DNA of 64,000 nt from Tubulanus polymorphus (lineage: Eukaryota > Animalia > Nemertea), in the NCBI RefSeq assembly GCF_964204645.1, contig NC_134030.1:15562110-15626109 (forward strand). Reading direction: 5' to 3'. Below, in pieces: positions 9,720-41,528 of the stretch (its first letter is position 1; each line of letters starts with the position of its first letter). The notes below the pieces were generated by a model. That model was not told where the DNA came from, did not search any database, and saw nothing but the letters and a program-made list of their open reading frames with translations. Position numbers and translations under genes: made by a program.

Positions 9720-12587
9720 TTGGGCGGCAAAACCAAAATAATGAATTGTCGCGGGCGATAAAACCAAAATAATGAATTGTCTCGTGCGACAAAACCAAAA
9801 TAATAAATTGTCACAGGGCAATAAAACCAAAATAATGAATTATCGCGGGCGATAAAACCAAAATATTGAATTGTCGCAGGCGATAAAACCAAAATAATGA
9901 ATTGTCGCGGGCGACAAAACCAAAAAAAATTGTCGCGGGCGACAAAAACAAAATATAAAACCAAAATAATGAATTGTCGCGGGCGTCAAAATGAAAAGAA
10001 GAATTGTCGCGGGCGACAAAACCAAAATAATGAATTGTCGCTGGAGATAAAACCAAAATATTGAATTGTCGCGGGCGACAAAACCAAACTAATCAATTGT
10101 CGCGGGCGACAAAACCAAAAAAAGAATTGTGGGGGCAACAAAACCAAAATAATGAATTGTCGCGGGCGACAAAACCAAAATGGTGAATGGTCCAGGCGAC
10201 AAAACCAAAATGGTGAATTGTCGCGGGCGACAAAACCAAAATGGTGAATTGTCGCGGGCGACAAAACAAAAAAAGAAGAATTGTCGCGGTCGACAAAACC
10301 AAAATAATGAATTGTCACTGGCGATAAAACCAAAATGGTGAATTGTCCAGGCGACAAAACCAAAATTGTGAATTGTCGCGGGCGACAAAACCAAAATAAT
10401 GAATTGTCGCGGGCGATAAAACCAAAATAATGAATTGTCTCGGGTGACGAAACCAAAATAATGAATTGTCGCGGGCGATAAAACCAAAATAATGAATTGT
10501 CGCGGGCGATAAAACCGAAATAATGAATTGTCGCGGGCGACAAAACCAAAATGGGGAATTGTCGTGGGCGACAAAACCAAAATAATGAATTGTCGCGGGC
10601 GACAAAACCAAAAAAAAAATTGTCACGGGCGACTAAAACAAAATATAAAATCAAAATAATGAATTGTCGCGGGCGACACAACCAAAAAGAAGAATTGTCG
10701 CGGGCGACAAAACCAAAATAATGAATTGTAGCTGGAGATAAAACCAAAGTAATGAATTGCCGCAGGCGACAAAACCAAAATATTGAATTGTCGCGGGCGA
10801 CAAAACCAAACTAATGAATTGTAGCTGGAGATAAAACCAAAGTAATGAATTGTCGCAGGCGACAAAACCAAAATATTGAATTGTCGCGGGCGACAAAACC
10901 AAAGTAATGAATTGTCGCAGGCGACAAAACCAAAATATTGAATTGTCGCGGGCGACAAAACCAAAATAATGAAGTGTCGCGGGCGATAAAACCAAAATAA
11001 TGAATTGTCGCGGGCGATAAAACCAAAATAATGAATTGTCGCGGGCGACAAAACCAAAATGGGGAATTGTCACGGGCGACAAAACCAAAAAGAAGAATTG
11101 TCGCGGGCGACAAAACCAAAATAATGAATTGTCGCGGGCGATAAAACCAAAATATTGAATTTTCGCGGGCGACAAAACCAAAATATTGAATTTTCGCGGG
11201 CGTCAAATCCAAAATATTGAATTTTCGCGGGCGACAAAACCAAAATACTGAATTGTCGCGGGCGACAAAACCAAACTAATGAATTGTCGCGGGTGACAAA
11301 ACCAAAAAAAGAATTGTCGGGGGCGACAAAACCAAAATATTGAATTGTCGCGGGCGACAAAACCAAACTAATGAATTGTTGCGGGCGACAAAACCAAAAA
11401 AAGAATTGTCGGGCGACAAAACCAAAATAATGATTCGTCGCGGGCGATAAAACCAAAATAATGAATTGTCGCGGGCGACAAAACCAAAATGGTGAATTGT
11501 CCAGGCGACAAAACTAAAATGGTGAATTGTCGCGGGCGACAAAACCAAAATAATGAATTGTTGCGGGCGATAAAACCAAAATGATGAATTGTCTCGGGCG
11601 ACAAAACCAAAATAATGAATTGTCGCGGGCGACAAAACCAAAATATTGAATTGTCACGGGCGACAAAACCAAACTAATGAATTGTAGCTGGAGATAAAAC
11701 CAAAGTAATGAATTGTCGCGGGCGACAAAACCAAAATATTGAATTGTCGCGGGCGACAAAACCAAAATGGGGAATTGTCGCGGGCGACAAAACCAAAATA
11801 ATGAATTGTCGCGGGCGACAAAACCAAAAAAAAAATTGTCACGGGCGACTAAAACAAAATATAAAATCAAAATAATGAATTGTCGCGGGCGACACAACCA
11901 AAAAGAAGAATCGTCGTGGGCGACAAAACCAAAATAATGAATTGTAGCTGGAGATAAAACCAAAGTAATGAATTGCCGCAGGCGACAAAACCAAAATATT
12001 GAATTGTCGTGGGCGACAAAACCAAAATGGTGAATTGTCCAGGCGACAAAACTAAAATGGTGAATTGTCGCGGGCGACAAAACCAAAATAAAGAATTGTC
12101 GCGGGCGACAAAACCAAAATGGGGAATTGTCGCGGGCGACAAAACCAAAATAATGAATTGTCGCGGGCGACAAAACCAAAAAGAAGAATTGTCGCGGGCG
12201 ACAAAACCAAAATAATGAATTGTCGGGGGCGACAAAACCAAAATATTGATTTGTCGCGGGCGACAAAACAAAACTAATGAATTGTCGCAGGCGACAAAAC
12301 CAAAAAGAAGAATTGTCGCGGGCGACAAAACCAAAATAATGAATTGTCGCTGGAGATAAAACCAAAATGGTGAATTGTCGCCGGCGATAAAACCGTAATA
12401 ATGAATTGTCGCCGGCGATAAAACCGAAATAATGAATAGTCTCGGGCGACCTAACCGAAATAATGAATTATCGCGGGCGATAAAACCAAAATATTGAATT
12501 GTCGCGGGCGATAAAACCAAAATATTGAATTGTCGCGGGCGACAAAACCAAAAAAAAAATTGTCGCGGGCGACAAAAACAAAATATA
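9720..12587. repeat. 31-bp satellite array
   Basis: Tandem 31-bp units up to the Maverick terminus. Confidence 0.95.
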
Positions 12588-13120
12588 AGTAATAGGGATA
12601 ATAGGCTTTCAGATCAAAGGTCTAAGGGTCGAGCTCGTAAAAAAATGAAAATAATAATAATTTACAGCTGAATTAGTCGCGCACACTCCTAATTCAACTG
12701 TAAATTATTATTATTTTCATTTTTTACTCACTCACCCCTTCAACCTTTGATATGAAAGCCTATTATCCCTAATACTCCTAAAATATTCATATATATGAAT
12801 AAAATATAAATGAATAACTTCTAAAATCAATTTTAATAAAAAATTTGATATTAAAATGGAAACAAATAAGTACTACTGTCCAACATGTAATATCAATATA
12901 GATAAATCCCAAAAAGCAAGGCACAATAAAACTAAAACACATTTAGAGAATAAATTGAAACTAGAATATGAAGATGATATATTAGAAACTAAATTAGATG
13001 AATTAAAGAATGAAAAAGATACATATAAATGTGATACATGTAATCAATCATTCAGTGATAAAAGATATTTTAAAGAACATTTAAAATCTAAAAGTCATAT
13101 TAGAAATAAGAATAATGATA
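12588..13120 (+). repeat. Left TIR of element A (includes 189-bp hairpin 12588-12776, promoter region and first ~88 codons)
   Basis: Reverse complement of 27521-28053 with scattered substitutions. Confidence 0.93.
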
Positions 13121-13506
13121 ACTTATTTTCATTATTTAACATTAAAAATTATATCTCAGCAACAAATTTAGTGTATGGAAGACAATATAAAATTGATAAT
13201 ATTTCTATAATCAATCAAATATTATCAAATGAAGCATATTTAATTATTGAACTGATAGATAATGGAATCAAAAATCCTAACATATTTCATACAGTTTTAA
13301 ATCATAAAGGAACTTTAGATGAAAAAATGATAAATATTCTTGAAACTCCTTTCAATGATAGAAATGATGATTTAATACTTTCTAGAGGTTACAATAATTT
13401 GATTAACTTAAGAATTGATAAAAGACAATTATATTATTTAAATTTGATGATAAACCAATTATCTATAATGAAAATTCATCAAATATTGGTATTCAATGTG
13501 AATTAG
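12856..13506 (+). CDS. Zinc-finger protein whose N-terminus (two C2H2/U1-type fingers) is shared with pPolB through the TIR; probably frameshifted, with a further finger (LCNCGKYYTRSNKSHHLKSK) near 13597-13660
   Basis: First ~88 aa nearly identical to ORF 27785-; unique C-terminus. Confidence 0.7.
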   Translation: METNKYYCPTCNINIDKSQKARHNKTKTHLENKLKLEYEDDILETKLDELKNEKDTYKCDTCNQSFSDKRYFKEHLKSKSHIRNKNNDNLFSLFNIKNYISATNLVYGRQYKIDNISIINQILSNEAYLIIELIDNGIKNPNIFHTVLNHKGTLDEKMINILETPFNDRNDDLILSRGYNNLINLRIDKRQLYYLNLMINQLSIMKIHQILVFNVN

Positions 13507-13710
13507 ATAATAATAATTCTTATAAAGATATTGGAATTCAATGTAATTTAGATGATGAAATTGTTGCGCCTAAATATAATCCTAATGAAAGCGTTTTATG
13601 TAATTGTGGAAAATATTATACTCGAAGCAATAAATCACACCATCTTAAATCAAAATATCAAAATATAACTCCAAATATTAACCAATTTAGTAAAAAAATA
13701 CGTATAATAA

Positions 13711-14366
13711 ATGGAACCAGAACAACCACAAACTATCAATATTACAAATAACACTGGTGTTATAAATATATATTACAAGAAGTGTTCTAAATGTGAATTT
13801 GATAAATTAGCTTTAACAGAATTTAGTAAGCGTAAGATTAGCAAAGATGTTTTCAATATTGCTGTAAAACTTTTTTTAAACTATATACCAAACAATACCG
13901 AGAAGATAATATAGAACATTATAATTATTATATGGCAGAATATATGAGAGAAAGATATCAAACAGATCTTAATTTTAGATTGAAACAATGCTTAAGATCT
14001 AGATTAACACAATTATTCAACAAAGAAACGCATTCAGAAACACTATCTAATTTATTGGGTTGTTCAGATGAATTCTTAAAATCATGGATAATATTTCAAT
14101 TCGATGATAAAATGAATATAAATAATGATGGTAATTATTTTCATATTGATCATGTGTTGCCTATTTCTAAATTTGACATGAATGATGAATATGATAAAAA
14201 GTTAATTTGGAATTGGAAGAATTAAAGACCTCTTGAAAAGAAAGAAAATAAAATAAAATTTAATAAACTAGATTTACAGTTATATTTGGATCAATTAGAT
14301 AAAGCAAAGAAATTCATTGAATTATGGAATAATGATCAAAATAATGAACAATACGTTGAGTCTTAA
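13711..14366 (+). pseudogene. HNH endonuclease (large-DNA-virus/phage HIDH..P type) with N-terminal CxxC
   Basis: KKCSKC, LLGCS, FHIDHVLP...WNWKN*RPLEKKEN motifs; frameshift and premature stop. Confidence 0.7.
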
Positions 14367-14623
14367 ATGAGAGTTTGAAGAATAATAGAATTTAAATAAA
14401 ATATGATAAAAAAACAATAACTTTAACTGCTTGTGAATTCTATTATATGTTTAATATTTTCTTTTCAAAAAAGAATACTTTATATCACAAATAAAAAATA
14501 CTAAAAAACAATAACTAATACTAAAATTCTTTACCTTTTACTAAGCTAGTATTAATCTAAAGAGATACTGGTATCATTTTATAATACTTATAATATTTTT
14601 CTTATTAAATTTCTCTAATATAA

Positions 14624-15225
14624 ATGTCAAAGAAATCTAATAAGAATAATATTGATATTGAAAAGACATTAGATGATTTGGGTATAAGTGATAATAAAGA
14701 TACAGTTGTAACTAATTGTGCTCAAGTTAATTGTAATATAGATTATGAATACTATTTATATTGTAAACACCATCTAGAACTATTGATTGCCGGTGGAAAA
14801 ACTAAAGAGTTTTTAAATAGAATTATTACTTTTCAAGAATTAGACTCTATGAAACCCGATAAAGTAATAAAATATTTTAAGATTTTGGAGAGGCAAGATG
14901 AGCCCGAATAAATGATTCTATTTCAGATGGTATTGTCAAATGTTATTCTAAGTTATGTAACCAGTTAATACCAATTAATGATGAAAATAAATTATATAGT
15001 GATTTGAAAAATGACTATTTAGTTATGACTGAATTACAAAAATTGGTTGGTTATGCTTCATCTCAAATAGGATCGGTTATGACATTAATTTCTACTGGTG
15101 TCATAACATTTTCGAACATCAAGCCTATGGAATATAAATCAGGTAAGAACGAAACAGATGTACTACAACCAAACGTCGAAACAGAAAATGAATCAGAACA
15201 AAAATTAACTAAAATAAATGAGTGA
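14624..15225 (+). pseudogene. Conserved Maverick hypothetical protein (frameshifted; intact 201-aa homolog at 49588-50193)
   Basis: ORFs 14624-14911 and 15004-15225 align to one ORF in element C. Confidence 0.7.
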
Positions 15226-15577
15226 TAGCGTTAAGAAGAAGCCTAGATCCGAGAAACAAATTATATGGGCAAGAGAATTAGGTAAAAGATCTTCAGAATT
15301 AAAAAAAGCTAAGAAAAAGAAATTAACTGATATAAATGAATCACAGACTTTATCTGATATTGATTCAAATAATAATCCATCTAATTCTTCTAATGCTGGA
15401 AGTAATTATAAATTATATATTACAATTGGATCAGTAACAGTTATTATATTATCCGGCGTAATATATAAATCAAAATTCAAATCTGATGATAAAGATGATT
15501 CAAATGATAATAAACCTATTATACCAGAAAATAAGTCAAATCATAAAGTCATTGAAACTAAATCTAAATTATTATTA
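15218..15577 (+). CDS. Basic protein with one predicted transmembrane helix, in frame with the integrase in this copy
   Basis: Lys-rich N-terminus, hydrophobic LYITIGSVTVIILSGVIY; ATAAATG start; degraded homolog at 49238-49595. Confidence 0.55.
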
Positions 15578-16717
15578 ATGGATAAAAATAAGATGAAAAA
15601 AGAACAATATTTAAGAGAGTTATATTACAACCCAGAGAGTGAAGTATCATATTCTAACGTTTCAGAATTATGGAATAAAATTAAATCTGATAATGAAAAT
15701 GGTGCCGTACGGCACCCACATGGTGATATAAAATATAGTGAATTAAGATTATGGTTACAAAATCAACCAACATATCAAATCCACAAGAAAATGGATAAAA
15801 CTTATTTAACAAGGAAAGTTATGGTTTCATATATCGATCAACAATGGCAAGCAGATTTAATTGATATGAAGAACTTAGAGGAATACAACAAAGGATATTT
15901 CTGGATACTGAATGTTATAGACATATTCAGTAGATACGCATGGTCAATTCCAATCAAAAATAAAACTGGTATAGAATTGACAAATGCTTTTAAATCAATA
16001 TTTAAAGAAGCTATTCCAGATAAGATACAATTTGATGGAGGTAAAGAATTTTATAACAAACATTTTAAAAAACTATTATCTGATAACGATGTAGATTATT
16101 TTTCAACACATTCAGATAAAAAAGCATCTATTATAGAAAGATTTAATAAAACATTGAAAACTAGAATGTGGAAATATTTTACTGCTAATGAAACATAGAA
16201 ATATATCGATGAGTCTAAAAATATATTAGATGATTTAGTGAAAGGTTATAATAATTCTAAACATTCAAGTATTGGTATGAAACCTATACAAGCTAGAAAA
16301 GAAGATAATTCGGAAATAGTTTGGAATAATTTATATGGAGCGTTTGTTACACATGATTTCGGCGAACCTAAATTTAAAATTGGACAACACGTAAGAATAT
16401 CTAAATATAGAAAAACATTTTATAAAGGTTATACCCCAAATTTTACTGAAGAAATATTCAAGATTAAAAAGATAATATTAACTAAACCTTTTGTTTATAA
16501 ATTAGAAGATCTAAAAGATGAAGAAATATTAGGTTATTTCTATGAACAAGAATTATCACTTGTACCAAATCCAGATGAAATAGAATACAAAATAGAAAAA
16601 GTATTGAAAACAAAAACTCTTAAAGGAAAAAAGTATTCTTTGGTGAAATATAAAGGATACGATGATAAATTTAATGAATGGATTTTATCTAGTAAAATTA
16701 AAAGAATAAATGAATAA
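15578..16717 (+). pseudogene. int: Retroviral-like (rve/DDE) integrase with C-terminal chromodomain; premature stop at 16196-16198
   Basis: WQADLIDM, IDIFSRYAW, QFDGGKEF, IERFNKTLK; C-terminal YKIEKVL...LVKYKGYDDKFNEWI. Confidence 0.93.
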
Positions 16718-17276
16718 AGATTTATTTATATTTGAACCGCATAAAATGTTAGTTACTGGAGTAACAAACTGTGGTAAAACACATTTCATATTAGACTTGT
16801 TAGATACTATTTATAAGAATCATTTTGATAATATAATATTATTCTGCCCCACTTATGAAATGAATAAAACATATAATAGAGATATAGTTAAGATGAAAAA
16901 GTTTATTATATTAGATCCTAAAACAGTAAAAGAAAATTTAGATAATTGTATAAAAATAGCAATTGATACTTATAAAGGATCAAATACATTATTCATTATA
17001 GATGATTGCGCTAATTTACATGATTCAAAAGTGAGAGAAAGTGAGTTATGTTATCTAGCTTTCTCTGGGAGACATTTTGGGATAACAACATGGGTTTTAA
17101 ATCAAAAATATAATTCAATTGTTAAAGACTTTAGGGAGAATATAAGATTTCTAGTTTTATTTTATAACAAAGATAGAAAATGTATGCAACAATCATTGGA
17201 AGAAAATCAAATTATACCTACTGAGTTACATGATGTTCTAAAATCTAACCATAATGCATATTTATTACCGGTATAA
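16710..17276 (+). pseudogene. A32/FtsK-like packaging ATPase, 3'-truncated by a deletion
   Basis: Walker A GVTNCGKT, Walker B FIIDD, GRH motif; diverges from the element C copy after ~17233. Confidence 0.88.
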
Positions 17277-18308
17277 TAATAAATTTGATTAATGTTACAA
17301 TTTTCAGATGATTTTACTTTTTCATTCATAAAATGTTTTCTAATTTCTGGCCATTGATCAATCATTCTCATTCCTTGACAAAATATTTTATTTGCTATTC
17401 CTTCGATAGTTATTTCTACTTTTGTTATTTCAGGATTATAATAATTATCAACATTTATTGCGCCATTAGTATATGTTGCAATGGTAAAAAATATTAATAT
17501 GCCTTTAATAGATCTCCTTGGGAAGTTAATATTCTCATTAATTATTTCATCATTTGCATTAATAGTTACGGTTTTAAATTTATCAATATAATCATATAAT
17601 AATGAAAATCCTTGATTGTATTGAGTTTGAATTATACTTGAAATATTTTCATCAGTTACTGTGTCATATTCTAAACATATATTCGATAATTTATAACCCA
17701 TATCTTTAACAACGCTAGATATTACAATTTCATTTACAGGAGCAAATGTTATTTCGAATATAACGTCTTCTTGAATTGCATATTTATATAAAGGCGCATC
17801 ATTATTTATCAATTCAAAGTCTAATGGAATTTTATATTTGCTTCCATAAATCTTTTTTATCAAATTATCTGCGGTACGAGTTACTATTGCGTCATTAGCT
17901 CCTGATCTTAATTTATTATGGTTTTCTGATTGGATTCCTTGAAATATCGTATTATTTCTATTTTCTTTAGTTAACCATTAATCTTTATAATGCATAAATA
18001 AATTATAATCATCTAATGAGAAAACTGTTTCTGGACCAATCTTTATAGTTAATTTTTTAATCAAATATCTCCCAACATTATCAACAACATAATTATTATT
18101 ATTACCGATTACTTTTATATCGGCTGATAAATAAATACTATTTGGAACATAAAAAAGTATTTTGTGTTAATCTAGGAATTCTAACATATAAAGTTTCATC
18201 GGGATTAATATTAGAAGGATTATGAGTAATTATATGATGTGATCTTTCTGCTTTAATAGCATTAGATATTCTAGAAATCTTAGAAGGACTTATATAACTC
18301 CCACTCAT
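17207..18308 (-). pseudogene. Major capsid protein (double jelly-roll), frameshifted and 3'-truncated
   Basis: Colinear with 45272-46518; position and size in a Polinton gene set; beta-rich composition. Confidence 0.72.
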
Positions 18309-18328
18309 TTATTTAACAAAAAAATTAA

Positions 18329-19801
18329 TTATTTATTTTTTATTATTTTTTCTTGATATCTTTTTGATATCATATTCACTAACCCAAAAAAAATAGCACT
18401 TACAACTGTAATTAAAAATAAAATAATATGTTCAGCAGCAAAGTTAATAATGTTTCCTGCAGATTTCAATATAAAACCAACAATTGATGCAATAATTCCT
18501 GGTAATGCTGCAGCAGATTTTTTAGATAGTTCCCATAAATATTTTGCTAATTTCTTTAAACCATCCTTAACTTTATCTTGTATATAATTATTGTCATTCG
18601 GGGGTTTATCTGGTTTATTGGGAGTAGGAGTGGATTTCAGTGAATTTGATATTGCTAAACCTATTGTTGTAAATACCATAGTTACAGCTGTTAGAATTGA
18701 AAGAATTGTTATTCCTTCTAATTTAAATAATAACTTTATTCTATCTTTCAATGATATTTTAGAATTTGGTTTTAATAGATATCTTTTAAAAACATCTTTT
18801 AATCTTTTAAAATTATTACCAAATTCTTTTAATAATATATCTCTTTCACCTTTCAGTACTTCTAAATTATCTTTTAAATTATTAATTTTTTTAATTTTAA
18901 ATTATAAATTTTTTTAAACGCGATTCTTTTTGTCTATGTTCCATTTCATCAATTACTTGACGATCAAGACCAGACTTTAATTGTTCTATTTCTTTATTTT
19001 TATCAGTTAATTCTTTTTCTAAATTGTTAATTTTAATATCTCTTATACTTTTATTATGTGCAATTTTATCAGCTTCATTTCTTATACTAATAATTTCTCT
19101 AATTGCTTCATCAGAAAATATATTTAAATCTTCTAATTCTTGATCTGTTGCATCAAGTAATCCATTCGGTAAAAGTTTTTCAGTTTGAACTTCTCTTGAA
19201 TTAGGTTTACTAGTTTTGGAATTAATAACTTCTTTAGGAATTTTTTTTGTCTTAAATTTTCATTAATTATCTTAAAAAATTTAGCATTTCTTTGTTTAAA
19301 TTCTCTTCTATTATCAACTATCTCTTTTTCTGTAACATCAGTTATAACATCATTAATGATTTTCTTAATTCTATCTGGTTTAAATAAATTAAAAGTTGAT
19401 TGTGTTATTATTTTATCGTTACTTTTAAGATTTGAAATCTTAAAATAATAGTCGCCTTTCAATTTCCAATAATAATCACCATTAAAATATTTCAAATCTT
19501 TTACTAAATAATTCATACCTTTATTTGTTATATTGAAACCAGATCTTTTAAACATTGGTTTAAATTCATGAATAATTTCATTATATTTGTATTCTTTTTC
19601 TGTTATTTCTGGTACTTCATTTTCAATACTTATCTTTGAACGTGTTTTATCAATATATGGAGGTGTATTTAAATTAGAATTACGTCCTGGCTCATTACCG
19701 TCATTAAAACTTGTTTCATTAAAATCAGGTTGTTGTTCATCACTTATACCAGGTTCATCTAAAGGATCCAATGGAAAACCTTCTCCACCTTCTACATGCA
19801 T
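18329..19801 (-). pseudogene. Coiled-coil protein with C-terminal transmembrane helices (homolog 43999-45251)
   Basis: ORFs 19133-19801 and 18329-18751; C-terminal ~130 aa nearly identical to the element C copy. Confidence 0.65.
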
Positions 19802-19817
19802 TTATTTAATAAAGAAA

Positions 19818-21137
19818 TTAAAATTTAAAATATAATATTCCTCCGATTACAATTCCTATACAAGTTAAAGCTAATTTAGCATTTTCATGGGATTTATTAT
19901 CATCATTTAGTTTAATTATACCATGTTGAATAATATCAGTTCTAATATTTTCTGATGTATTGTAATCTTTTTATTTTAGAATCATTATTTAATTTGATAT
20001 TATTAGTTTTAGTTTCTGTTGATTGAATATGTTTTATATTTTTTTCACCTTCCATTAATTTTGGAGCAGTGATAATCTTTTTATTTATATCATTCAATCC
20101 AAATGAATTATGTATTGTTGCAGTTTTAATTAGATTATTGTAACCAATTATGTTTCCCATCTTTAATACTAAATCATTAGAAATAATTAATAGATTAGGG
20201 CCTATACAATAATTTAATCTAATATGTGATTCATCTAAATAGTTTTGATATCTTACAATGTTTTCTGGAATCGATCTATTTTTATCATTATGAATTGAAT
20301 CTTCAAATAATACTTTAAATTGTTTCTGCGCATCAAATGAAGTGTTATCATTTCCAACTATTGGGGATCTTGTTTCAACTTGTGCACCTAGAATACATAT
20401 CAAATAAGTTCTAATAGATTGATTTATTCTTTGTATACCAGCTTTAGTAAAACCTTCACTATTTTCTAAAATGAAATTAACCCAACCATTATTGTTTTGT
20501 TGTTGTATATTATTATAATATTTTGGTAATTCATTCCAATTTAGTGTTCTTATATCTGAATTTTTTCCAAATTCTTTAGTATATAATATTCCTAATCCAC
20601 CCATTGTTCCAATTTTTGCTCTAAAATCTTTATTTAAAATTAATATCAAATTCATTACATATTTTATAAAACTTAGAAAAATTAATATTATTATTCAATT
20701 CTTTAAAATATTTTGAACCTGGTAAATGACATTCTAATTCATCTAATATTAATTGTATTTGAAAATAAGTATGAAATCTAAAAAGTGATAACATCAATGG
20801 TAAACTTGGTTTGTTTAAATGATCATTCCAACTTATTCCACAACCTGTTGTTGCGCAATAAACAGCAAAATTTAATTGGTTCTGCCAATACTTCATATTA
20901 GATTTTAATAACCATTGTTTTGCCTCATTTAAATTTTTGAAATTAATTGTATACACATGAAATATATTTTCCACCTTTACATGGAAAATTATTACTTTCA
21001 GTAACATAAATATATAAATCAATTAATGAATTTAAAACTTCATTTCTATATGTAATATCTTTATTAAAATCTATTGCGGGAATATTATATTTAATTGATT
21101 TATTATATTGGAAAGCTTTTGGAAAACTATCTGCCAT
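19818..21137 (-). pseudogene. Conserved Maverick protein with KYWQNQLNFAVYCATTGCG motif and C-terminal TM anchor (438-aa homolog at 42667-43983)
   Basis: Three frameshifted ORF pieces align to the intact element C ORF. Confidence 0.7.
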
Positions 21138-21153
21138 TTATATAATTAAAAAA

Positions 21154-21588
21154 TTAATAATTTATTAATTCTTTTAATAATTTATCTTGTTCTTCAACTG
21201 TTATATGGCCATTTAGACTTATTATATAATCTAGTGTGTTCTTTAATTTATTAATTTCTTTTATATTAGTTTTAATTTTTTCTTTATCACTTTTTATATT
21301 TAATTTTGAACTTATACCAGTTTAAATACTTGAACTTAATCCTAATACACCAATTGATATAGCTAAAGGTGTTAATGGACTGAATATTGCTAGAAATGTT
21401 ATTACAGAACTAATTGTAACCGAACCACTTATAATCAAATAATATATAATTTTACTTTTTAAATATTTTTTCTTTTTTATCTTTAAGTCACTTTCAAATT
21501 CTAATATTTGTTTTTCTAAATATGTTTTTAATTTAGTTTTATTTATATCATGAGGAATAATATCAATATTATCAACTTTATCTTCCAT
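21154..21588 (-). pseudogene. Two-TM hypothetical protein (144-aa homolog at 42216-42650)
   Basis: Homology to the element C ORF; hydrophobic segments. Confidence 0.65.
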
Positions 21589-21606
21589 ATATTTAGAAAA
21601 AAATTA

Positions 21607-22000
21607 CTAATTAGTAAATTTATATGCTACAAATATAACAATAACAGTTCTGTTGTTCTTTACTTTGGGTATAATAATCTGATAATTTAGGTTTGTATAG
21701 ATGTAATTTTTCTTTATTTGTTACTGCGTTATATAAACTCATTGCATCATCAACTGATTGAAAATCTCTATGTGAAATCTTCTGATCATATAATTCCTTG
21801 TTAATATAATCCATATAGTTTTGTCTCTTTTCTCTATATTCTTCTGCTGCTTTATTGTATTTCTCTAATGCTAAGTGATGTCTTTTTTGTTCTGTTAATG
21901 ATCCATTTTTATCAATATGTTTAAATAAATAACCACCACCAGTAAATGCTAAATCGTTAACAATTTCCGATCCTATAATAGTTATAATTGCAGAAGCCAT
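21607..22000 (-). pseudogene. Membrane-associated hypothetical protein (MASAIITIIG...LAFTGGGYLF)
   Basis: Homologs at 41775-42197 and 58031-58444; small deletion near the 3' end. Confidence 0.65.
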
Positions 22001-22024
22001 TTATTTACTAAAATAATTACGCAT

Positions 22025-22246
22025 TTATATGGGAGGAATATATTTTTGTTTTTCTAAATAATCAATAGTTAAATTAGATAAACTAACTGCTAATGTTAAT
22101 TTTAAAATATCATTTATATCAAATCTATCAACATTAACACTTCCCATTTTAAATACTTTTTTTAATACCATTGAATAACCAACGGTTCCAACTGATAGTA
22201 ATTCTCCATTATATAATCCAGTTATTATCCACTTATTATCACTCAT
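22025..22246 (-). CDS. 73-aa hydrophobic hypothetical protein
   Basis: Near-identical intact ORF at 41529-41750; ATAAATG start. Confidence 0.7.
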   Translation of the reverse strand: MSDNKWIITGLYNGELLSVGTVGYSMVLKKVFKMGSVNVDRFDINDILKLTLAVSLSNLTIDYLEKQKYIPPI

Positions 22247-22585
22247 TTATTTATCAAAAAAATTACTATCATCAAAATATTTAGTTAACTTATTTATGAT
22301 TAATTCAACATTTATTTCATTACTAGTTTCATTTGTATATATTTCAATTATTATTTTTTTAATGTCATCGATGATAAAATCTTCATGTAATTCATAAAAT
22401 CTTAAAGATTCTCTAATTAAATTAGTAATCTTTTCTACATTTAAAGTTTCTTTATCTATTGTTGTTTCATTAGAAAATGTAATATTTTTGATATGTGTAA
22501 TTACATCATTAATGTTAAATTTCATTTCTTTCTCACGTTTAAAATCAAATCCAAAACATATACTCGGTCCAACAGTTATATTCAT
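22247..22585 (-). CDS. 112-aa hypothetical protein
   Basis: Homolog at 41171-41527; ATAAATG start. Confidence 0.65.
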   Translation of the reverse strand: MNITVGPSICFGFDFKREKEMKFNINDVITHIKNITFSNETTIDKETLNVEKITNLIRESLRFYELHEDFIIDDIKKIIIEIYTNETSNEINVELIINKLTKYFDDSNFFDK

Positions 22586-22658
22586 TTATATAGTGAAAAA
22601 AATTACTCTTTTCATCTTATAACTAATTCATATATTACAGGAAAGTTATTCAAATAAA

Positions 22659-23354
22659 TTAAATAACCATTATGATTTCTAATTTCAAATTATTGAAATG
22701 TGGAATACAAGGATTAAAATCACATTCAGCTAAATTATAATTTATTTGCGTTCCAAATTGTTTAACATTCTTCAATGGTAAAATGTTAAGTAAACCAGAA
22801 TTACAAGTTATATCTTTAGTTGCTTCAAATGTTTTTGGAGGATCGATTAAATTGCAATAAATATAAAAATGTGTAAAAGGTATTATATTTGAATTACCGT
22901 CTACGTTTCCTGTAACAGTTTGTGGTTTAATTCCTAACAGTTTAGCTAAAGGTTTCCTTACCATAAATGCATGTTTGCTTTCATCACCTAACTCTATTTT
23001 AATCTTATCAGAACTATCACTTTTTATAAATCTAATTGAAAATTTATCTTCACTTTCAAGTTTTAATCGTGCTTTCCGATTAATTTCTTGGGCTAATGTT
23101 TCTAAATTATATAACCCTGGTTTTAAAAAGAGATGAAACCATTTATCTACATTTCTAATATGAATTAAAAAGACTTTATGTTCGAGAGTTTTATCCGATA
23201 TATTATAAAAAGAATTACATAAACTTATATTAACTAATTTTAAATCTACACAATTCTTAAATTCTCTATCTAATTGTACTAGTAAATTATGAGATTTATA
23301 ATTTGTAAGTCTTCTTGAATCAACAAATATTCTGTATTCTTTTAATTCTACCAT
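22659..23354 (-). CDS. Minor capsid protein (penton, single jelly-roll), small 3' lesion
   Basis: IFVDSR, LVNISLCNSFYNI, PGLYN, LLGI, FYIYCNLI, LLNILP pattern typical of Polinton/virophage mCP. Confidence 0.7.
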   Translation of the reverse strand: MVELKEYRIFVDSRRLTNYKSHNLLVQLDREFKNCVDLKLVNISLCNSFYNISDKTLEHKVFLIHIRNVDKWFHLFLKPGLYNLETLAQEINRKARLKLESEDKFSIRFIKSDSSDKIKIELGDESKHAFMVRKPLAKLLGIKPQTVTGNVDGNSNIIPFTHFYIYCNLIDPPKTFEATKDITCNSGLLNILPLKNVKQFGTQINYNLAECDFNPCIPHFNNLKLEIIMVI

Positions 23355-23371
23355 TTATTTTACATATTTTC

Positions 23372-23725
23372 TTATTCGAAATCTATTTCATGGTGCCCTT
23401 TTTCATTCTTACCTTTGTATACGAAATAGAAATCACCAGAACATAATTCTTCTAGATCTTCACTTGATAATCTATGAAATCTATCGGGTAAATATGTTCT
23501 GAATTTATATGTATTTCCTTTTAATCCTTCATATTCTAAGTGTATAACTAATTTATCTCCATATTTGTTAGTAACTCTATCAATATTTGTAATTAGATAT
23601 TTCTTGTGGATTATTAATTCTTTTAACTTCTTAAATTTATAATCTACTGATTTGACATTTGAAGTATATTTTATTCTATCTAGAAATGATTTGTTGTTCT
23701 CACTGTGTGTTTGTTTACTCTCCAT
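23372..23725 (-). CDS. 117-aa hypothetical protein downstream of pPolB (possibly an OB-fold ssDNA-binding protein)
   Basis: Conserved in A, C and D; beta-strand pattern; function is inference only. Confidence 0.6.
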   Translation of the reverse strand: MESKQTHSENNKSFLDRIKYTSNVKSVDYKFKKLKELIIHKKYLITNIDRVTNKYGDKLVIHLEYEGLKGNTYKFRTYLPDRFHRLSSEDLEELCSGDFYFVYKGKNEKGHHEIDFE

Positions 23726-23754
23726 TTATAATACATATTTTTATTAAAATTTGA

Positions 23755-26700
23755 TTAACACGTTAGAATTCTTTTCATTATCTCGTTCTCTTTTGTTTCT
23801 TCTCTTTTAAATTTTAAGTATTCATCTAAATTACATCCATAAGCAACTGTATGAATTCCATCATCTAAAATATATCTTTTATCATCAAATGGGTTTAGAC
23901 TTATCTTTTCAATTTCTTCAATAAACATTTCATGATCTTCAGATCTTAAACATCTCATTTTATGTTTTCTAACTTCTTCATTGAATATACAATTGATGTA
24001 ATCTTTGAAATGAATATTCTTTTCTACCACATTTTTGGTTTTTCCTTTTAACTTTTTAGCTTCATGTTCTTTAGTTTTATATGAATACATTTTAGATCTA
24101 ATACCAATGAATTCAATCATTTCTTCGCCACCTAATTCATCTTTGAATTTACCGGGAACTTTTTTATTATCATTGCTAAAAAATTCATGATCTTTAGGAT
24201 AGTTACTAAAATCAAAATGATGTTTTAATGTTTTTAAATCATCTGTTATGTTATCAGTTTTTATCTTTAATATGTAACTGTCAGTATCAAAATATAATAT
24301 TTCTATATGTTTTTCTCCAAAAAGTAGTTGTAATATATTATAATAGAATTCATACATTAGTAATTTTGATAATTCTAAAACTGATGCGCCAACATAGATT
24401 GGTTTATTAAATTTCATTGATGTTCTTCTCATTTTAACTGCAGCTAAATTTTCATCAAATATCCTGTTACCTATAAATTTAGGATATGATTGTAAATGTC
24501 TAATTCTTTTACCATTACTAACTAACTCAATATCATTTCTATTTCTAATATTTTCACAAGTCTTACCATAGAATGCATTGTTCATTAACTTGAAGAAATC
24601 TTTTTCGAAATCAGTTTTAGCTTCAGTTCTCTGTTTGGTGTTAAAATCTATATATTTTTCTAACCATTTAGATTGACTAAATGAAATATATCTATGTACT
24701 TTTTTTAGAACCATTCCTTGATTCAAATAAAACTTTAACATTCTATAATGTACTACATAATTATATTTATCTTTTTGAGTTACCATTAACTTTTCTGTAT
24801 GAATATGATTTTCGGGTTTAATTCTTTTTTGGTAATTTGATAATTCTTCATGAGTTACAGTTTTATGTTCGGGACAGTATGCTAGATTTCTAGATTTAAA
24901 TTTTTTATCTTCAGGATATTCTAAATCTACAACAAAGAAGTAACCAGTATCTGAATCATCTGCAATATCTAGAATTCTTTTCTTCCAATCAAATTTATCA
25001 TTATTTTCATTCTGTAAAACTTCAGTTAATTCAAATACTCCATAAGGTTGTGGTTCCATCATTGCCCAACCATACAAATTATTTGCATCTATATATAATA
25101 ACTTATATCCAGGGTTATCATTTACATTGAAATATCTATCCCCTAATACACCTGAAACACCTCCTCTTATAGATTTTTCAAATAATAGTAATTGATCTAT
25201 ATTTGTTAACAAATCCATTTTTATATCCGTAAATTTTAATCCACAATCCCATGTTAAACCTGGTGATGAATAACAATGACATGGATCAATATTAAAATAT
25301 TTTAGGTTAACATCTCTAAACCTTTCGAATATATCGGTTAATAATAATACATCTGATTTTAGAAATCTACTTATTGTCCATGATTTGTTATTTTAAAATG
25401 ATTCCAAATGTTCAATGTTCTGTTATAGACTTCATCTTTAACATATTCATTTTTTAATTCATCATAGAATTGTTCTTTTAATAATTCAGTTATGTTAAAA
25501 TCATTATGATTTTTATAGAAAGAATATGGAATTGCTCCTTTATATCTCATTAATTGGAAATCATCATTATTTGGGTAGTGTTGTTTTAATATTTTCAATT
25601 CATCATCAACTAATGATTTTGATAAGTTATCTAATGAACTATTTAAAAATCTATATGAATCTATAAATCTTAGACAACCAAATTGGAATGATATATAATT
25701 CTCAGATGTTTTAGCTAACATTCTAAATTTATAAGTTGGTATTTTATCTTTTGATCTATTTGAATTTAATCTTTCTATTTCGTTATTAATTTCTTCTATT
25801 TTATGGCATAACTGTTTGATGAATAAATGTGCATCATATCCTGATAGATTATGAAATATAACTGGTACAAAATTAATTTTCTTAGCTTGTAAGTTACAAT
25901 TCTCATGTGCAGCGCCTCTAAACTTTCCGTTCAAATGATCATGGTCTCTTACTTTTTTATCTTTATAATTAAATATCTTTTCACAATAATAACATTTATC
26001 TGCAAACGCAAATGCTTCTTTATCTTCTTCTGTCATTATAATTTCTATATTTGTATTCAATAATTTACTAAATCTTATTTCATATTCAATTAATAAGTCA
26101 CAAAAATGATTGATAACATTTTCAATTCTGTAATTATAATATTCACTTTCAATTAGTTCTGGATAATCAGATTTAATATATAACCCGAAAGCAGCAGCTG
26201 ATTGATGAATCTTTTTAATAGTATTTGTTTTTGGTGGTTCATCTGAAAAATCATTTTCATTAGAATTTAATTTCTTTCTTTTATAATATATTTCTTTTCT
26301 ATCTTGATCAGTTAGTTCTTTATTTAATGATTCAAAATCTCCATATATAACAAATGGATCTTCATTTTTGTAATCATATTTTTTGAATTCTAATATTTTA
26401 TCTTTTTCATTTGGTAAAACTAATTTACAATAATCATGATTTTCACATAATTGTTTATGATTCAATAATGTACTTTCATTACTGAATCTATGTAAACATT
26501 TTCTACAAAGATATATTTTATTATGGTGATCACTTTCCGTTCTAAAGAATAAATCTATTTGTTTAATCCACATATAATGATTCTCATAATATAATATATC
26601 TATAACATCATTTGAATCATAATCTTTTGATAGATATAAAGGTTCTAATGTATAATGTTTTATATTGTTACCTTTTGTATTTGGTAATTTGATTAAATCA

Positions 26701-27785
26701 AATACGTTTATTCTTAAATTATTATCTCTTTCTATTTTTGGGATGTTTTTGATTATAACAGGATACTTATCTATCTTATAATTATTTTCAAATGGTTTAT
26801 AATGAGTTAATCTACAAATATTATAAGTTGCAGGATGTAAACAACTTATTATAGCCCATAGAAAACATTTATCATCTTCATTTTGTACATTTATTACAGC
26901 TTTAGTTTTAAATGGTAGTTTAATATAACTCGATGCTTCAATATCTGGTTCTTTATGATATGATACATTATTTTCATCAATTGGTTTTGATTTAGTTAAC
27001 TTATTACATTTTGTGTTATAAACATGTAAAGTCATAAATATTATTTCATCAAATATTAAACCAGATCCTTCAAAAAATTTCTCTTCTATTTTAGTTTTTA
27101 CTTCATTATAACATTTATCTAATTTATCATCTATATGTTGTTTTGAAATAATATGTTGTGAATGAGAATTTATATTATATATTGGTTTATCTTCAGATTT
27201 TATGAATTTAACTTTTGATGAAATACTTATTTTAGGATATTCAACATCAGTTATTATTTTTATTATTTCTTTCATATTTTCTAAATGTTTTTTATTTTCT
27301 TCTAATGTTTTTCCTTTATGAAATTTAAACTCGATAGCTGCTGGGCCAATATCACTTTTAAATGCTTCGGTTATCTCTATATCTTTTTTATTATCTAATG
27401 AATTAATATATTTTCTTACATCTTCCATGTATGGTCTTTTATTGTTTAATTTATTTTGTATGCTTTTAATTGTCTTCTGTTTCTTATCATTATCTTTATC
27501 AAAATAATCTTCACCTAAAATATCATTATTCATATTTCTAATATGACTTATAGATTTTAAATGTTCTTTATAATATCTTTTATCACTGAATGATTGATTA
27601 CATGTATCACATTTATATGTTTCTTTTTCATTCTTTAATTCATCTAATTTAGTTTCTAATATATCATCTTCATATTCTAGTTTCAATTTATTGTCTAAAT
27701 GTGTTTTAGTTTTATTGTGTCTTGCTTTTTGGGATTTATCTATATTGATATTACATGTTGGACAGTAGTACTTATTTGTTTCCAT
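23755..27785 (-). pseudogene. polB: Protein-primed family B DNA polymerase (pPolB) with ZnF, OTU-like and EndoVII/HNH inserts; disrupted near 25371
   Basis: ExoI YGDFES, ExoII FHNLSGYD, motif A YIDANNLYGWAM, motif B KLMNNAFYGK, motif C YFDTDS; KVRDHDHLNGKFRGAAHENCNL. Confidence 0.95.
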
Positions 27786-28053
27786 TTTAATATCAAATTT
27801 TTTATTAAAATTGATTTTAGAAGTTAATCATTTATATTTAATTCATATATATGAATATTTTAAGAGTAATAGGGATAATAGGCTTTCAGGTTAAAGGTTG
27901 AAGGGGCGAGTGAGTAAAAAATGAAAATAATAATAATTTACAGTTGAATTAGGAGTGTGCGCGACTAATTCAACTGTAAATTATTATCATTTTCATTTTT
28001 TTACGAGCTCGACCCTTCGACCTTTGATCTGAAAGCCTATTATCCCTATTACT
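27521..28053 (-). repeat. Right TIR of element A (hairpin 27865-28053)
   Basis: Inverted copy of 12588-13120. Confidence 0.93.
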
Positions 28054-28350
28054 TATACAAAACCAAAATAATGAATTGTCGCGGGCGACAAAACAAAAAA
28101 GAAGAATTGTCGCGGGCGACAAAACCAAAATAATGAATTGTCGCTGGCGATAAAACCAAAGTAGTGAATTGTCGTGGGCGATAAAACCAAAATATTGAAT
28201 TTTCGCGGGCGACAAAACCAAAATAATGAATTGTCGCAAGCGATAAAAGCAAAATAATGAATTGTCGCGGGCTATAAAACCAAAATATTGAATTCTCGCG
28301 TGTGACAAAATCAAAATCATTGTTTTCTCGCGTTATTTTAGTTTTGTCGT
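28054..28350. repeat. End of the 31-bp satellite array, closed by an inverted partial unit
   Basis: Tandem units resume after element A; TTATTTTAGTTTTGTCG at ~28333-28349 is an inverted unit. Confidence 0.85.
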
Positions 28351-29389: not shown

Positions 29390-29764
29390 ATGTATTTATA
29401 TTTATTATTTAACGATTATTATAAAAAACCTAAATTAACAGAAAAAGATATGGAAAATATAAAATACATATTTAAACAAATATTAAGATATTATGTGGAT
29501 AATAGAATAACAGATTCAATTAATTATGAATTCTTTTTAAATAAGATTGTAAATTATTTAAACATCGATATTATAATTCCATTTGATGAATTAACAAACA
29601 AAAAGAAACAAAGAGAGCGAGATGAAATATGGTACAAGATAGAACTTTATTTAAATGAGAAAAATGAAATGGAAGAACCTAAACAAATTATACAAGAACA
29701 ATTAAATAAAAAAGAAGAAACCAATAGTGATTTCGAGTTTGATGACATTGATTTTATGTCTTAA
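29390..29764 (+). CDS. 124-aa hypothetical AT-rich ORF, convergent with pPolB-B (stops overlap on TTAA)
   Basis: Open frame with element-like codon usage and acidic tail. Confidence 0.45.
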   Translation: MYLYLLFNDYYKKPKLTEKDMENIKYIFKQILRYYVDNRITDSINYEFFLNKIVNYLNIDIIIPFDELTNKKKQRERDEIWYKIELYLNEKNEMEEPKQIIQEQLNKKEETNSDFEFDDIDFMS

Positions 29765-32700: not shown

Positions 32701-34839
32701 TGTCTTAGCTAATATTTTTAAATCATATTTTCTTACATTTGTACTATTCATAGCATTATATTCTTCTATTTCTTGATTAATTGAGCCCAATTTTCCTGAT
32801 AATTGTTTTATAAATAGATGAGTATCATAGCCCGATAAATTGTATGAAATATCATTGGTACGAAATTAACTTTTTTAGCTTGTAAATTGCAATCTTCATG
32901 AGCAGCTCCGCGGTATTTTGAATTTAAATGATCATGATCTCTAACTTTTTTATCAAATGAATAAAAACGTTTTTCACAATAACAACAATGAGTTGCATAA
33001 TTAAAATCAATTTCATCTTCTTTTGTCATAACTATTCTTTTATTTTTGTTTAATAATTCTGCAAAATCACTTTCTAATTCAATTATTTTGTTACAAAAAT
33101 TATTAACTACGTCTTCACCTCTAAAAGAAATATATTGACTTTCATATAATTCAGGATAATTTGATTTTATATAAATTCCGTAAGCAGCAGCTCTTTGATG
33201 AACTTTTTTAATTGTATTTATAATTGGCGGGTCTTGTATTGTGTCTTCATTTAATTCATTTCCTTTATCCATTGATTTTAATAATTGCTTTTTGTTATAT
33301 ATTTCTGTTCTATCTTGATCAGTTAATTCTTTATTCAACGATTCAAAATCCCCATAAATTACAAATGGAACAATATTCTTAAATTTATGATTATTAAATT
33401 TCAATTTATAATCTTTTTCTGTTGGTATTATTGATTTACAAAAATCTTTATTATCACATAATTCTTTATGTTTTAATAATGTATTCTCAGTCATAAATTT
33501 AGATAAACATTTTCTACGATAAATTTTAAGATGATGATCACTTTCTGTTCTAAAGAATAAATCAATTTGTTTTAACCACATATAATGTTCATTTTCATCT
33601 TTTTTTGTAACATAAAAAATCTATAGCATTTTCATCATCATAATATTCTGTTAAATATAAAGCTTCCAATGTATAATCTTTAATATTTTCACCTTTTGTC
33701 TTTGGTAATTGCATTAATTCGAATACATTTATTTTTCAATTATTAACTTTTTCTATTTTAGGAATCATTATTATAGTTACTGGATATTGATCAATTTTAT
33801 ATAATGTTTCATATTTCCGGTAATTTGTTATTCTAAAACTATGTGTAATATCTTCTGTTGGATGTAAACAAGTAATAATTGTCCATAGAAAACATTTATT
33901 ATCTTCATTTTGATCATTTATTACTGCTTTTGTTGTAAATGGCAATTTAATATAACTTGATGCTTTAATATCCTTTTCTGTTGTAAAGTTGGAATCATTT
34001 TTAAACATTTTATTACTTTTTGATGTTTTATTTCTTTTTGTATTATAAACATTTAAATCTAAATATATAATTTCATTTAATGATAAGCTAGAACCTTCAA
34101 AATATCTTTCTTCAATATGACGTTTAAATTCATTAAATATTTTTTCTAACTTCTCTTTTATTTGTGTTTTTGAAATTATTTCTTCAGAGTGTGTTTGAAT
34201 ATTATAATCCATTTTATCTTCTGACTTTAAAAATCTTACTTTCCCAGAGATACTAATTTTTGGATATTCAACATCTGTTATCAAATCTAGTATTTTTTCT
34301 ATTATTTCATTAAATTTACTATAATCTTCTATTGTTGTACCTTTAAAAAATCTAAATATAATAGCTGCAGGACCAATTTTACTACGTAATGTTTCTAATA
34401 TTTCAATTGTATCTTTTATTTCTAGTGAATCGATATAATTTCTAACATTTTCCATGTAAGGTTTATTTGAAATGGATTTAGTTTTTGAAGTTGATTTTTT
34501 TACTTGTTGAGGTTTATCATCAAAATAATCTTTTCCTAAAACATTATTACTCAAATTTTGATGGTGTTTTTGTGATTCGAGATGTCTTTTATAATTCCAT
34601 TTTACTATAAATTCATTACAAACTTCACATTTTATTTCATCCACAATCATATCATCTAATCGTTCTTTTCTTTCATTGGAATTTTCTGGAGTTTCAAAAT
34701 CTATTACATTATTTATATGATTTGCAGATTTTTCGTGTTTAGATTTATTAGATTTATCGATGTATTTTTTACAATATGGACAATAATATTGATTTTTATT
34801 GACATTATTGTTTTCTATATGTTGTTCATTCTCCCCCAT
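29761..34839 (-). pseudogene. polB: pPolB of element B, intein-containing, with several frameshifts
   Basis: ORFs 33736-34839, 32808-33581, 31591-32790, 31451-31672 and 29761-31233 carry the pPolB motifs in order. Confidence 0.93.
30217..31282 (-). mobile_element. Intein with LAGLIDADG homing endonuclease in pPolB motif C (~355 aa, one frameshift near its start)
   Basis: YFD|SVTADTPILL start; block B TEDHSL; LAGLIDADG helices FIKGFFMGDGS and FFIGFYAADGT; block F DYVYDLSTEDGTF; block G LIAKN|T. Confidence 0.92.
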
Positions 34840-36264: not shown

Positions 36265-36814
36265 CAAACCGGCATTCTCATAATGTACATTTATAATTCA
36301 TAGATTATCAGCTGATTTACTGTAATCAATCATTCCTTTGCGATTTTGATATTACTCTAGTAATAGGGATAATAGGCTTTCAAGCCAAAGGTCGAGAGGT
36401 CGAGAAATTTTCCAAATATGAAAATAACAATAATTTCTAGTTGAATTAGTCGCGCACACTCATAATTCAACTAGAAATTATTGTAGTTTTTTCATATTTG
36501 TAAAATTTCTCAACCTCTCAACCTTTAGCTTGAAAGCCTGTTATCCCTATTACTCTTAAAATATTCATATACATGAATAAAATATATATGAATAACATAT
36601 AAAAGTAATAGGAAAAGTGGGGTTTCAGATCAGAGGACGGAGGACGAGCCATTATAAATAGATATATAGATATATTTTTAACATATTTCAATATTTATAT
36701 TTGTATGAGTTAGATTTTTAAACATAAAAAGTGTGAGTAAAGTGTGATTGAAATAATTCATATTTAAATCATTGAACTTCTAAAATCAATTTAAGAAAAA
36801 AATTTAGTATTAAA

Positions 36815-39800: not shown

Positions 39801-39995
39801 TTAAGATCTGAAGATCATGAAATGTTTATTGAAGAGATAGAAAAGATAAGTCTAAACCCATTTGATGATAAAAGATATATTCTGGATGATGGAATTCATA
39901 CAGTTGCATATGGTTGCAATTTAGATGAATACTTAAAATTTAAAAGAGAAGAAACAAAAGAGAACGAGATTATGAACAGGATTCTAACGTGTTAA
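36815..39995 (+). pseudogene. polB: pPolB of element C; frameshifts, stops and an internal deletion at ~39038 removing ExoIII and motif A
   Basis: ORFs 36815-37204, 37328-38833, 38891-39091 and 39318-39995; KQHY-encoding DNA joined directly to the ILKKVHRY-encoding region. Confidence 0.92.
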
Positions 39996-40024
39996 TCAAA
40001 TTTTAATAAAAATATGTTATCAAA

Positions 40025-40378: not shown

Positions 40379-40392
40379 ATTATGTAAAATAA

Positions 40393-41130: not shown

Positions 41131-41170
41131 TTAGTTATAAGATGTAGAGAGTAATTTTTTTATTATATAA

Positions 41171-41527: not shown

Positions 41528-41528
41528 A

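Follow-up and report, generated by a model that had tools for sequence, protein, structure and literature searches.

The window analysed here is a 64,000-nt stretch of the genome of the nemertean Tubulanus polymorphus (contig NC_134030.1 of assembly GCF_964204645.1, 15,562,110–15,626,109, forward strand; positions below are counted within the window). It holds the Maverick/Polinton-like element A together with its copies C and D and a related element, B. We found that nearly every gene of A opens with TAAATG, preceded about 10–17 nt upstream by a T- or A-rich block. We suggest that the two parts would form a compact promoter carried by each gene and built like the late and intermediate promoters of poxviruses. 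Judged from the DNA sequence, it is very probable that the signal marks transcription starts. The whole chain, in which a helper virus would supply an RNA polymerase of the poxvirus type to read the signal, has a probability that we put at roughly 0.4.

ATAAATG at the gene starts of element A

The genes of A were mapped by tblastn with an intact metagenomic relative, L002 (11.5 kb, GC 0.20). The map places pPolB, g1–g8 and g9 on the minus strand and orf13711, g13, the integrase and the ATPase on the plus strand; several of these genes are frameshifted. A preliminary description of this DNA, based on the letters alone, had listed 12 ATAAATG gene starts in A and a further one at the polymerase of B. 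All 12 sites carry the heptamer on the strand given, as does the B polymerase start (34839), and by the L002 homology map the motif heads 12 of 15 genes in A, in keeping with its described presence at nearly every gene start. The g6 start (21588) reads TATATG in A and ATAAATG in copies C (42216) and D (58465). Two starts of A driven from the terminal inverted repeats (TIRs), at 12856 and 27785, read TTAAAATG, as had been described. Gaps between the minus-strand genes of A measure 0–53 nt, which fits the short intergenic distances reported for the element.

The suspected enrichment over shuffled background was borne out. ATAAATG occurs 83 times in the window against a mean of 50.5 in dinucleotide shuffles (standard deviation 6.5, maximum 65), and none of 100 shuffles reaches 83. 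Within A, ATAAATG opens 11 of the 23 open reading frames (ORFs) that reach 60 aa, and ATAA precedes 29 of 635 ATGs overall (4.6%; binomial test, P-value = 1.5e–9). ORF starts in Markov shuffles give a base rate of 6.4%, against which the rate observed in A is again highly significant (P-value = 4.9e–8). ORFs that lack the motif are mostly downstream or internal pieces of frameshifted genes, for example the one at 25218, which is internal to pPolB. The 56-aa ORF that opens at the motif-bearing start 18308 represents the 5' end of the broken capsid gene.

Conservation of the motif among relatives

Metagenome contigs scanned with an alignment of g7 yielded 80 related loci, whose ORFs of at least 100 aa were scored for a TAAATG start. 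TAAATG heads 13 of 14 such ORFs in L002, all four in L003, both in L001 and two of three in L004. It also heads 7/7 in L010 (GC 0.38), 6/8 in L007 (GC 0.39), 3/3 in L057, 2/2 in L043 and 2/3 in each of L009, L014 and L029. For the strongly positive relatives, P-values range from 5e–8 to 3e–14. No TAAATG start is present in 55 of the 80 loci, and 13 have scattered single cases only. Since the motif is kept in relatives with GC from 20% to 39% and is absent from 55 of the 80 related loci, base composition does not explain it. TAAATG starts are found in at least three separate clades with good support on a g7 tree; their distribution requires 6 changes, whereas shuffled labels need 15.7 on average.

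TAAATG is mostly preceded by T in the GC-richer relatives; hence, the conserved core is TAAATG and not the 7-mer ATAAATG. The placement of the motif at gene starts in the preliminary description therefore stands, while the heptamer itself has to be replaced by TAAATG plus an upstream T block.

Other start contexts are found among the remaining loci. The AT-rich locus L013 (GC 0.28) has TAAATG at 0/5 starts and uses AAAAATG, and L040 uses a TATAG-ATG context. A clade with a GC of ~47% (L046, L050, L051, L059, L063, L064, L078 and L079) carries a different, near-invariant box of ~25 nt directly before the g7 start, a candidate for a separate lineage-specific promoter.

A two-part signal and two putative promoter classes

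TAAATG at gene starts is accompanied by T at fixed upstream positions. In relatives with GC 31–39%, T occupies positions –11/–10/–9 of gene-start TAAATG in 84/58/84% of cases, versus 44/40/30% at other TAAATG in the same DNA. The corresponding values at gene starts of L001–L004 are 78/96/83%, and gene-start TAAATG in the window has T in 72% of cases at –10 and in 100% at –9. The overall range for –11 to –9 is 58–96% at gene starts versus 30–48% at other TAAATG sites. Under a strict two-part definition (at least five T at –12 to –7, plus TAAATG), both strands of the 15.5-kb element A contain 6 sites, all of them gene starts (g3, g4, g5, g7, g8 and g9), and L002 contains 12, of which 10 are gene starts. 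Markov shuffles of A have a mean of 1.3 strict sites.

The starts fall into two classes. In the T class, TAATTTTTTT is followed by a spacer of 5–6 nt and ATAAATG; it comprises g3–g9, including the capsid gene, as well as g13 and the B polymerase. The A class has an A run at about –17 to –10, often followed by TG, and comprises the pPolB/TIR starts, orf13711, the integrase, the ATPase, g1 and g2. The putative promoters are at most ~30 nt long and often lie inside the coding end of the upstream gene; many of the start contexts contain TATAAA or AATAAA. They are as follows.

13684..13713, plus strand: orf13711 promoter, A-rich class with ATAAATG
14597..14626, plus strand: g13 promoter with ATAAATG; g13 is the homolog of a 206-aa gene of L002
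15191..15220, plus strand: integrase promoter, A-rich class with ATAAATG
16683..16712, plus strand: ATPase promoter, A-rich class with ATAAATG, the TAA being the integrase stop codon
18306..18335, minus strand: capsid gene (g9) promoter, T class (TAATTTTTTT, spacer, ATAAATG)
19799..19828, minus strand: g8 promoter, T class with ATAAATG
21135..21164, minus strand: g7 promoter, T class with ATAAATG
21586..21615, minus strand: g6 promoter, T class, initiator mutated in A (TATATG)
21998..22027, minus strand: g5 promoter, T class with ATAAATG
22244..22273, minus strand: g4 promoter, T class with ATAAATG, inside the 3' coding end of g3, the TAA being the g3 stop
22583..22612, minus strand: g3 promoter, T class with ATAAATG
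23352..23381, minus strand: g2 promoter, A-rich class with ATAAATG
23723..23752, minus strand: g1 promoter, A-rich class with ATAAATG
34837..34866, minus strand: pPolB promoter of B, T class with ATAAATG

The g4/g5 interval (22000–22028, minus strand) has a peculiar layout. The g4 stop forms another ATAAATG, which opens a mini-ORF of seven codons ending in the TAA of the g5 ATAAATG. This arrangement is kept in C and D.

Resemblance to poxvirus promoters

A 2025 review describes three promoter types of vaccinia that can be set beside these classes. In the late type, TAAAT typically precedes a G that forms part of the start codon, and the 10th nucleotide upstream is a conserved T, surrounded by T's that are less conserved; the intermediate type combines TAAA with an upstream AT-rich, A-preferring stretch; the early type is A-rich and interrupted by TG (passages of PMC11980589). 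The same late design is given in a 2017 review as a T-containing core, a 5–7 bp spacer and TAAAT(G/A), with AAAAT/TAAAT motifs near iridovirus starts and TCTA as the CroV late motif (PMC5294985). The vaccinia polymerase core is described in a 2026 structure paper as reading the TAAA initiator directly, the AT-rich core at –26 to –13 being bound by a TBP/TFIIB-like factor (sections of PMC12917281).

Compared position by position, the T class of the Maverick agrees with the late design. The A class is similar to the intermediate type, but its A run lies at about –17 to –10, versus –26 to –13 as given in those sections of PMC12917281. The post-replicative promoters of poxviruses are likewise at most ~30 nt long, may sit inside the upstream gene and occur one per gene. 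In its gene content the 15.5-kb integrating Maverick differs from poxviruses, having no RNA polymerase, capping enzyme or VLTF set. The likeness to poxvirus late promoters claimed in the preliminary description is real, and it extends to a T block ~10 nt upstream of TAAAT and to an A-rich, intermediate-like class.

A scan of IMG/VR with the T-class consensus returned at least 120 loci, which we ranked by TAAATG at ORF starts. Among the matches listed, one locus stands out with TAAATG at 5/6 ORF starts, the next best having 2/7. According to Pfam this top locus is the A11–A17 block of a chordopoxvirus, and the contexts of its late genes look interchangeable with those of the Maverick. A weight matrix was built from the 20 nt upstream of 9 TAAATG starts, found among 22 ORFs in 20 kb of that chordopoxvirus record. 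It separates gene-start from other TAAATG of the Mavericks with an area under the curve (AUC) of 0.75 in the window (P-value = 2.6e–4) and of 0.79 in L001–L004 (P-value = 2.5e–5).

How the signal may be read

With a promoter of poxvirus late or intermediate design, transcription would start inside TAAAT, and the resulting mRNAs would have either no leader or a 5' poly(A) leader produced by slippage. By the Kozak rule, scanning ribosomes are poorly served by T at –3; this context makes more sense in an mRNA that begins at TAAAT. The polymerase reading the signal would be viral, of the poxvirus type, and would come from a large DNA virus infecting the same cell. It is placed in a helper virus because the element encodes none: a scan of all 28 ORFs of A and B that reach 100 aa, and of the L002 genes, detected no RNA polymerase family. 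The helper-dependent, virophage-like lifestyle proposed in the preliminary description is a reasonable reading in view of the capsid protein and the lack of an RNA polymerase gene; it is tempered by the ordinary nuclear Maverick features of the element and by a live rival, host transcription. We regard as doubtful the further step that this clade of capsid-encoding Mavericks consists of integrated virophages of poxvirus-lineage viruses, with true late and intermediate promoters that would stay silent until infection and then give mRNAs with poly(A) leaders.

Several observations weigh against a helper virus of the poxvirus lineage. The element bears the marks of a nuclear, self-integrating Maverick, namely an rve-chromodomain integrase, a 5-bp target-site duplication (TSD), insertion in satellite DNA and many diverged copies. 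Sister g7 clades use AAAAATG or TATAG-ATG, a pattern consistent with adaptation to different helpers and equally to different hosts. Within the window, only B has the VLTF3-like ORF, which A, C and D lack. No more than 9 sites underlie the poxvirus matrix, which is supporting rather than decisive; its AUC is a modest 0.65 in relatives with GC 31–39% (P-value = 0.012). Moreover, one of 300 Markov shuffles of A also gave 6 strict two-part sites, the maximum reached. Known poxviruses infect animals; to our knowledge, poxviruses have no virophage, and we know of no poxvirus-like virus of this host.

The same two-part signal could instead be a minimal core promoter and initiator for host RNA polymerase II (Pol II), with TATA-binding protein (TBP) bound to the AT-rich block or to TAAAT. 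An element-encoded factor might take part, and the mRNAs would be nearly leaderless, as in protists with short untranslated regions; no helper virus would be involved. This is a serious contender, close behind transcription by a helper-virus polymerase though somewhat less probable. A is a typical nuclear Maverick in its integrase, chromodomain, TSD and many copies, TATAAA or AATAAA occurs in many of its start contexts, and the different start contexts of different g7 clades are what would be expected if each tracks its host. Work cited in the reference list of PMC5294985 describes vaccinia intermediate and late promoter elements as TBP targets. Host transcription accounts less well for a motif that stays the same in relatives ranging from 20% to 39% GC, which probably live in different hosts, or for a layout that matches poxvirus promoters position by position. 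T at –3 and an initiator at zero distance from the ATG are unusual for Pol II genes. Furthermore, no TBP, TFIIB or other transcription-factor family was found among the proteins of A, C, D and L002 with sequence profiles at permissive thresholds (Pfam E-value up to 5, PHROGs); nor did these searches reveal an RNA polymerase.

An action at the RNA level appears improbable. The TAA could serve termination–reinitiation on a polycistronic mRNA, as an in-frame stop directly before the ATG; it is indeed the upstream stop, or lies one codon after it, at g3/g4, at integrase/ATPase in A and at three junctions of L002. It could also belong to a poly(A) signal abutting the next ATG, the hexamer that ends at the A of the ATG being often AATAAA, TATAAA or ATTAAA, which are known poly(A) signal variants. 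However, for 17 of 41 TAAATG starts in the relatives, no ORF of 100 aa or more in the same orientation ends in the 400 nt upstream. Eight of these 17 belong to divergent gene pairs, such as the pair at 3589/3627 of L007 with a shared gap of 37 nt, and hence have no preceding message to end or reinitiate from. Most junction gaps are 17–53 nt, a 3'-end signal would leave the exact, invariant overlap with the next ATG without a reason, and the T block at fixed distance is specific to the gene-start copies. A by-product of AT richness, combined with calling ORFs from the first ATG after a stop, is hardly credible in spite of a GC of 23%, TAA as the commonest stop and TAA before 7.9% of all ATGs in A. 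Observed rates are 48–100%, versus 3.6–7.4% in composition-matched shuffles under the same ORF rule, and the motif is kept at GC 38–39% and absent from the AT-rich L013. The shuffles, the ATG background and the GC of the relatives thus refute this explanation. A Kozak-type context is unlikely, as –3 is T, and a splice-acceptor or trans-splicing role for the T run is ruled out, as no AG follows it.

Comparison with other mobile elements and viruses

pPolB, an rve integrase, an A32-like ATPase, a capsid protein, long TIRs and a 5-bp duplication are common to Mavericks/Polintons (polintoviruses, adintoviruses). In virophages and polinton-like viruses (mavirus/EMALEs with CroV, Sputnik with mimivirus, PgVV-14T with PgV), promoters are copied from the giant virus, as portions of the literature on them report. 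Like these, the element is small, integrating and capsid-encoding, has pPolB and an rve integrase and a short virus-type motif before its genes, lacks its own RNA polymerase and has a GC below that of the flanking host DNA. Unlike them, it carries a poxvirus-type motif, whereas they have mimivirid-type motifs (for example TCTA or the mimivirus late motif) and identified helpers.

In the cytoplasmic linear plasmids of yeast, the initiator is TAAAN, and slippage produces 5' poly(A) leaders as in poxviruses (described in part of PMC6211774). With the plasmids pGKL1/2 the Maverick shares a TAAAN-like motif at gene starts, an AT-rich linear form, TIRs and a protein-primed polymerase. However, pGKL1/2 are cytoplasmic, encode their own RNA polymerase and capping enzyme and have no integrase or capsid, whereas the Maverick is chromosomal and has an integrase and a capsid protein but no RNA polymerase. 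A full-text literature search, whose coverage excludes supplements and subscription journals, gave no report of TAAATG/TAAAT promoters in Mavericks, Polintons or virophages.

Whether Mavericks/Polintons are self-sufficient or need helpers bears on the origin of virophages, adenoviruses and giant viruses. A promoter at the start codon predicts transcript starts, 5' ends, early versus late gene blocks and the type of polymerase. Given a helper, virophage biology would reach past the relatives of mimivirus to include the poxvirus branch. Without one, the design of the TAAAT initiator would have to predate poxviruses and yeast linear plasmids and occur more widely than in these two groups; an older design would bear on the proposed descent of both from Polinton-like ancestors. 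Should the Mavericks be integrated virophages, they would be the first satellite viruses of the poxvirus branch and possibly a heritable antiviral defence.

Gene content and identity of the element

Element A is a Maverick/Polinton, as its pPolB, rve-chromo integrase, A32 ATPase, double-jelly-roll capsid protein, TIRs and 5-bp TSD attest, and it is viral in nature, that is, capsid-encoding. Its annotated genes, together with one ORF of B, are listed below.

15218..16717, plus strand: integrase; rve (Pfam, 7.1e–9) and C-terminal Chromo (2.9e–5); frameshift near 16200 in A; matched by tblastn to the L002 integrase
16710..17276, plus strand: A32-like packaging ATPase (Pfam Pox_A32, 7.4e–12)
17231..18308, minus strand: g9, double-jelly-roll major capsid protein gene, frameshifted in A (tblastn, AF2, Foldseek)
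19821..21137, minus strand: g7, ~440 aa, mostly helical; in four pieces in A, intact in C at 42667–43983
23755..27785, minus strand: pPolB with N-terminal zinc fingers, an Endonuclease VII/HNH insert and the polymerase; split in A at ~25218–25371
29390..29764, plus strand: VLTF3-like ORF of B (Pfam Pox_VLTF3, 2.8e–7), covering profile positions 83–163 of 168, the C-terminal half only

The AlphaFold (AF2) model of the L002 ortholog of g9 has a pLDDT of 87.5, and in Foldseek it matches the capsid proteins of SGIV (an iridovirus), PBCV-1, mavirus and Sputnik (E-values 3e–16 to 1e–10); by this predicted structure, g9 is the major capsid protein. Under standard stop codons, alignments of the capsid protein and of other proteins with their relatives extend over the full length. 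The g7 product (438 aa) has 123 relatives and is widely conserved; in one clade its gene stands head to head with the packaging ATPase. It has no match in Pfam, among PDB sequences or in Foldseek. A capsid role for g7 is ruled out: its model is mostly helical, it has no PDB match, and g9 is the capsid protein instead. IMG/VR contained no relatives matched by the g7 protein or the g7 alignment. For g2 only four relatives were found, none of them annotated. Among the remaining ORFs, sequence profiles of Pfam and PHROGs gave no match to an adenain-like protease or a penton.

In copy D, the HNH module and DNA_pol_B_2 (Pfam, E-value 3.2e–17) lie in one polymerase gene. The C-terminal part of pPolB is represented in A by a 487-aa ORF, which is 69% identical to the polymerase of B. 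According to Pfam, B itself encodes a protein-primed polymerase (DNA_pol_B_2, 5.6e–13), an intein with a LAGLIDADG domain and the VLTF3-like ORF. At its truncated end, B has a tandem repeat of 54 bp (29231–29355; 2.3 copies, 97% matches), with the VLTF3-like fragment immediately downstream. A full-length VLTF3-like gene (Pfam, 1.2e–19) stands beside the g7 homolog of a distant relative (3644–4288 of L040), whose start contexts are of the TATAG-ATG type.

L002 has a deoxynucleoside kinase gene (10340–10981, minus strand; Pfam dNK, 1.7e–31) under a T-class TAAATG promoter; its best PDB matches are labelled deoxynucleoside kinase (E-value 1.7e–14). No such gene is present in A. Relatives of g9 that are ~55% identical to the L002 capsid protein (P0206 and P0260–P0267) lie on contigs of 0.5–1.6 kb, where a length is given, and are recorded under nine assemblies labelled Bartonella sp. 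CLxxQHWL. These contigs are most likely eukaryotic or viral contamination of the assemblies.

Element A and its setting in the window

The window opens with ~12 kb of a 31-bp satellite (GC ~39%), interrupted by a 154-bp satellite at 281–710 and 8640–9394, and AT-rich copies of the element family (~23% GC) follow from 12584 onward. The main units are the following.

12584..28057, no strand: element A, a complete, decayed Maverick/Polinton-like copy with the 31-bp satellite on both sides (self-BLAST, inverted repeat, junctions)
12584..13125, no strand: left TIR of A, holding an A-rich promoter and the first codons of the ORF at 12856 (TTAAAATG)
27516..28057, no strand: right TIR of A, with the same promoter as the left TIR, driving pPolB (start 27785, TTAAAATG)
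36755..52279, no strand: element C, inverted with respect to A; start motifs, for example, at 41171, 41529, 41775, 42216, 42667 and 45272
52661..64000, no strand: element D, partial, continuing past the window end; start motifs at 57149, 58031, 58465 and 58917

In self-BLAST, the two TIRs of A (~540 nt, 96% complementary) are 96.8% identical over 537 nt. The junction sequences (12540–12600 and 28040–28120) show the target duplication CAAAA (5 bp) at both flanks. The left-end ORF (12856–13506, 216 aa) shares the N-terminus of pPolB; the TIRs hold the promoter and the first ~90 codons, which form the zinc-finger part. By self-BLAST, C and D are ~90–94% identical to A. Element B (~28.3–36.4 kb) represents a related family, with ~74% nucleotide identity to A across the polymerase region (74.6% by self-BLAST). 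The GC of the element is 23%, versus 39% in the flanking satellite. Insertion in satellite DNA, together with a chromodomain integrase, suggests that heterochromatin or satellite DNA may be targeted.

The element is deeply covered by public DNA reads from the same organism, for the most part with 90–99% identity; hence, it belongs to a multi-copy family of diverged copies. Of four sequencing runs aligned to the stretch, two, one of them presumed to be RNA, contributed no reads. At the frameshift places 13848, 14885, 18151, 19968 and 20983 of A, most DNA reads differ by one base in length. The frameshift breaks thus appear to be private to copy A, and other copies may be open at those places.

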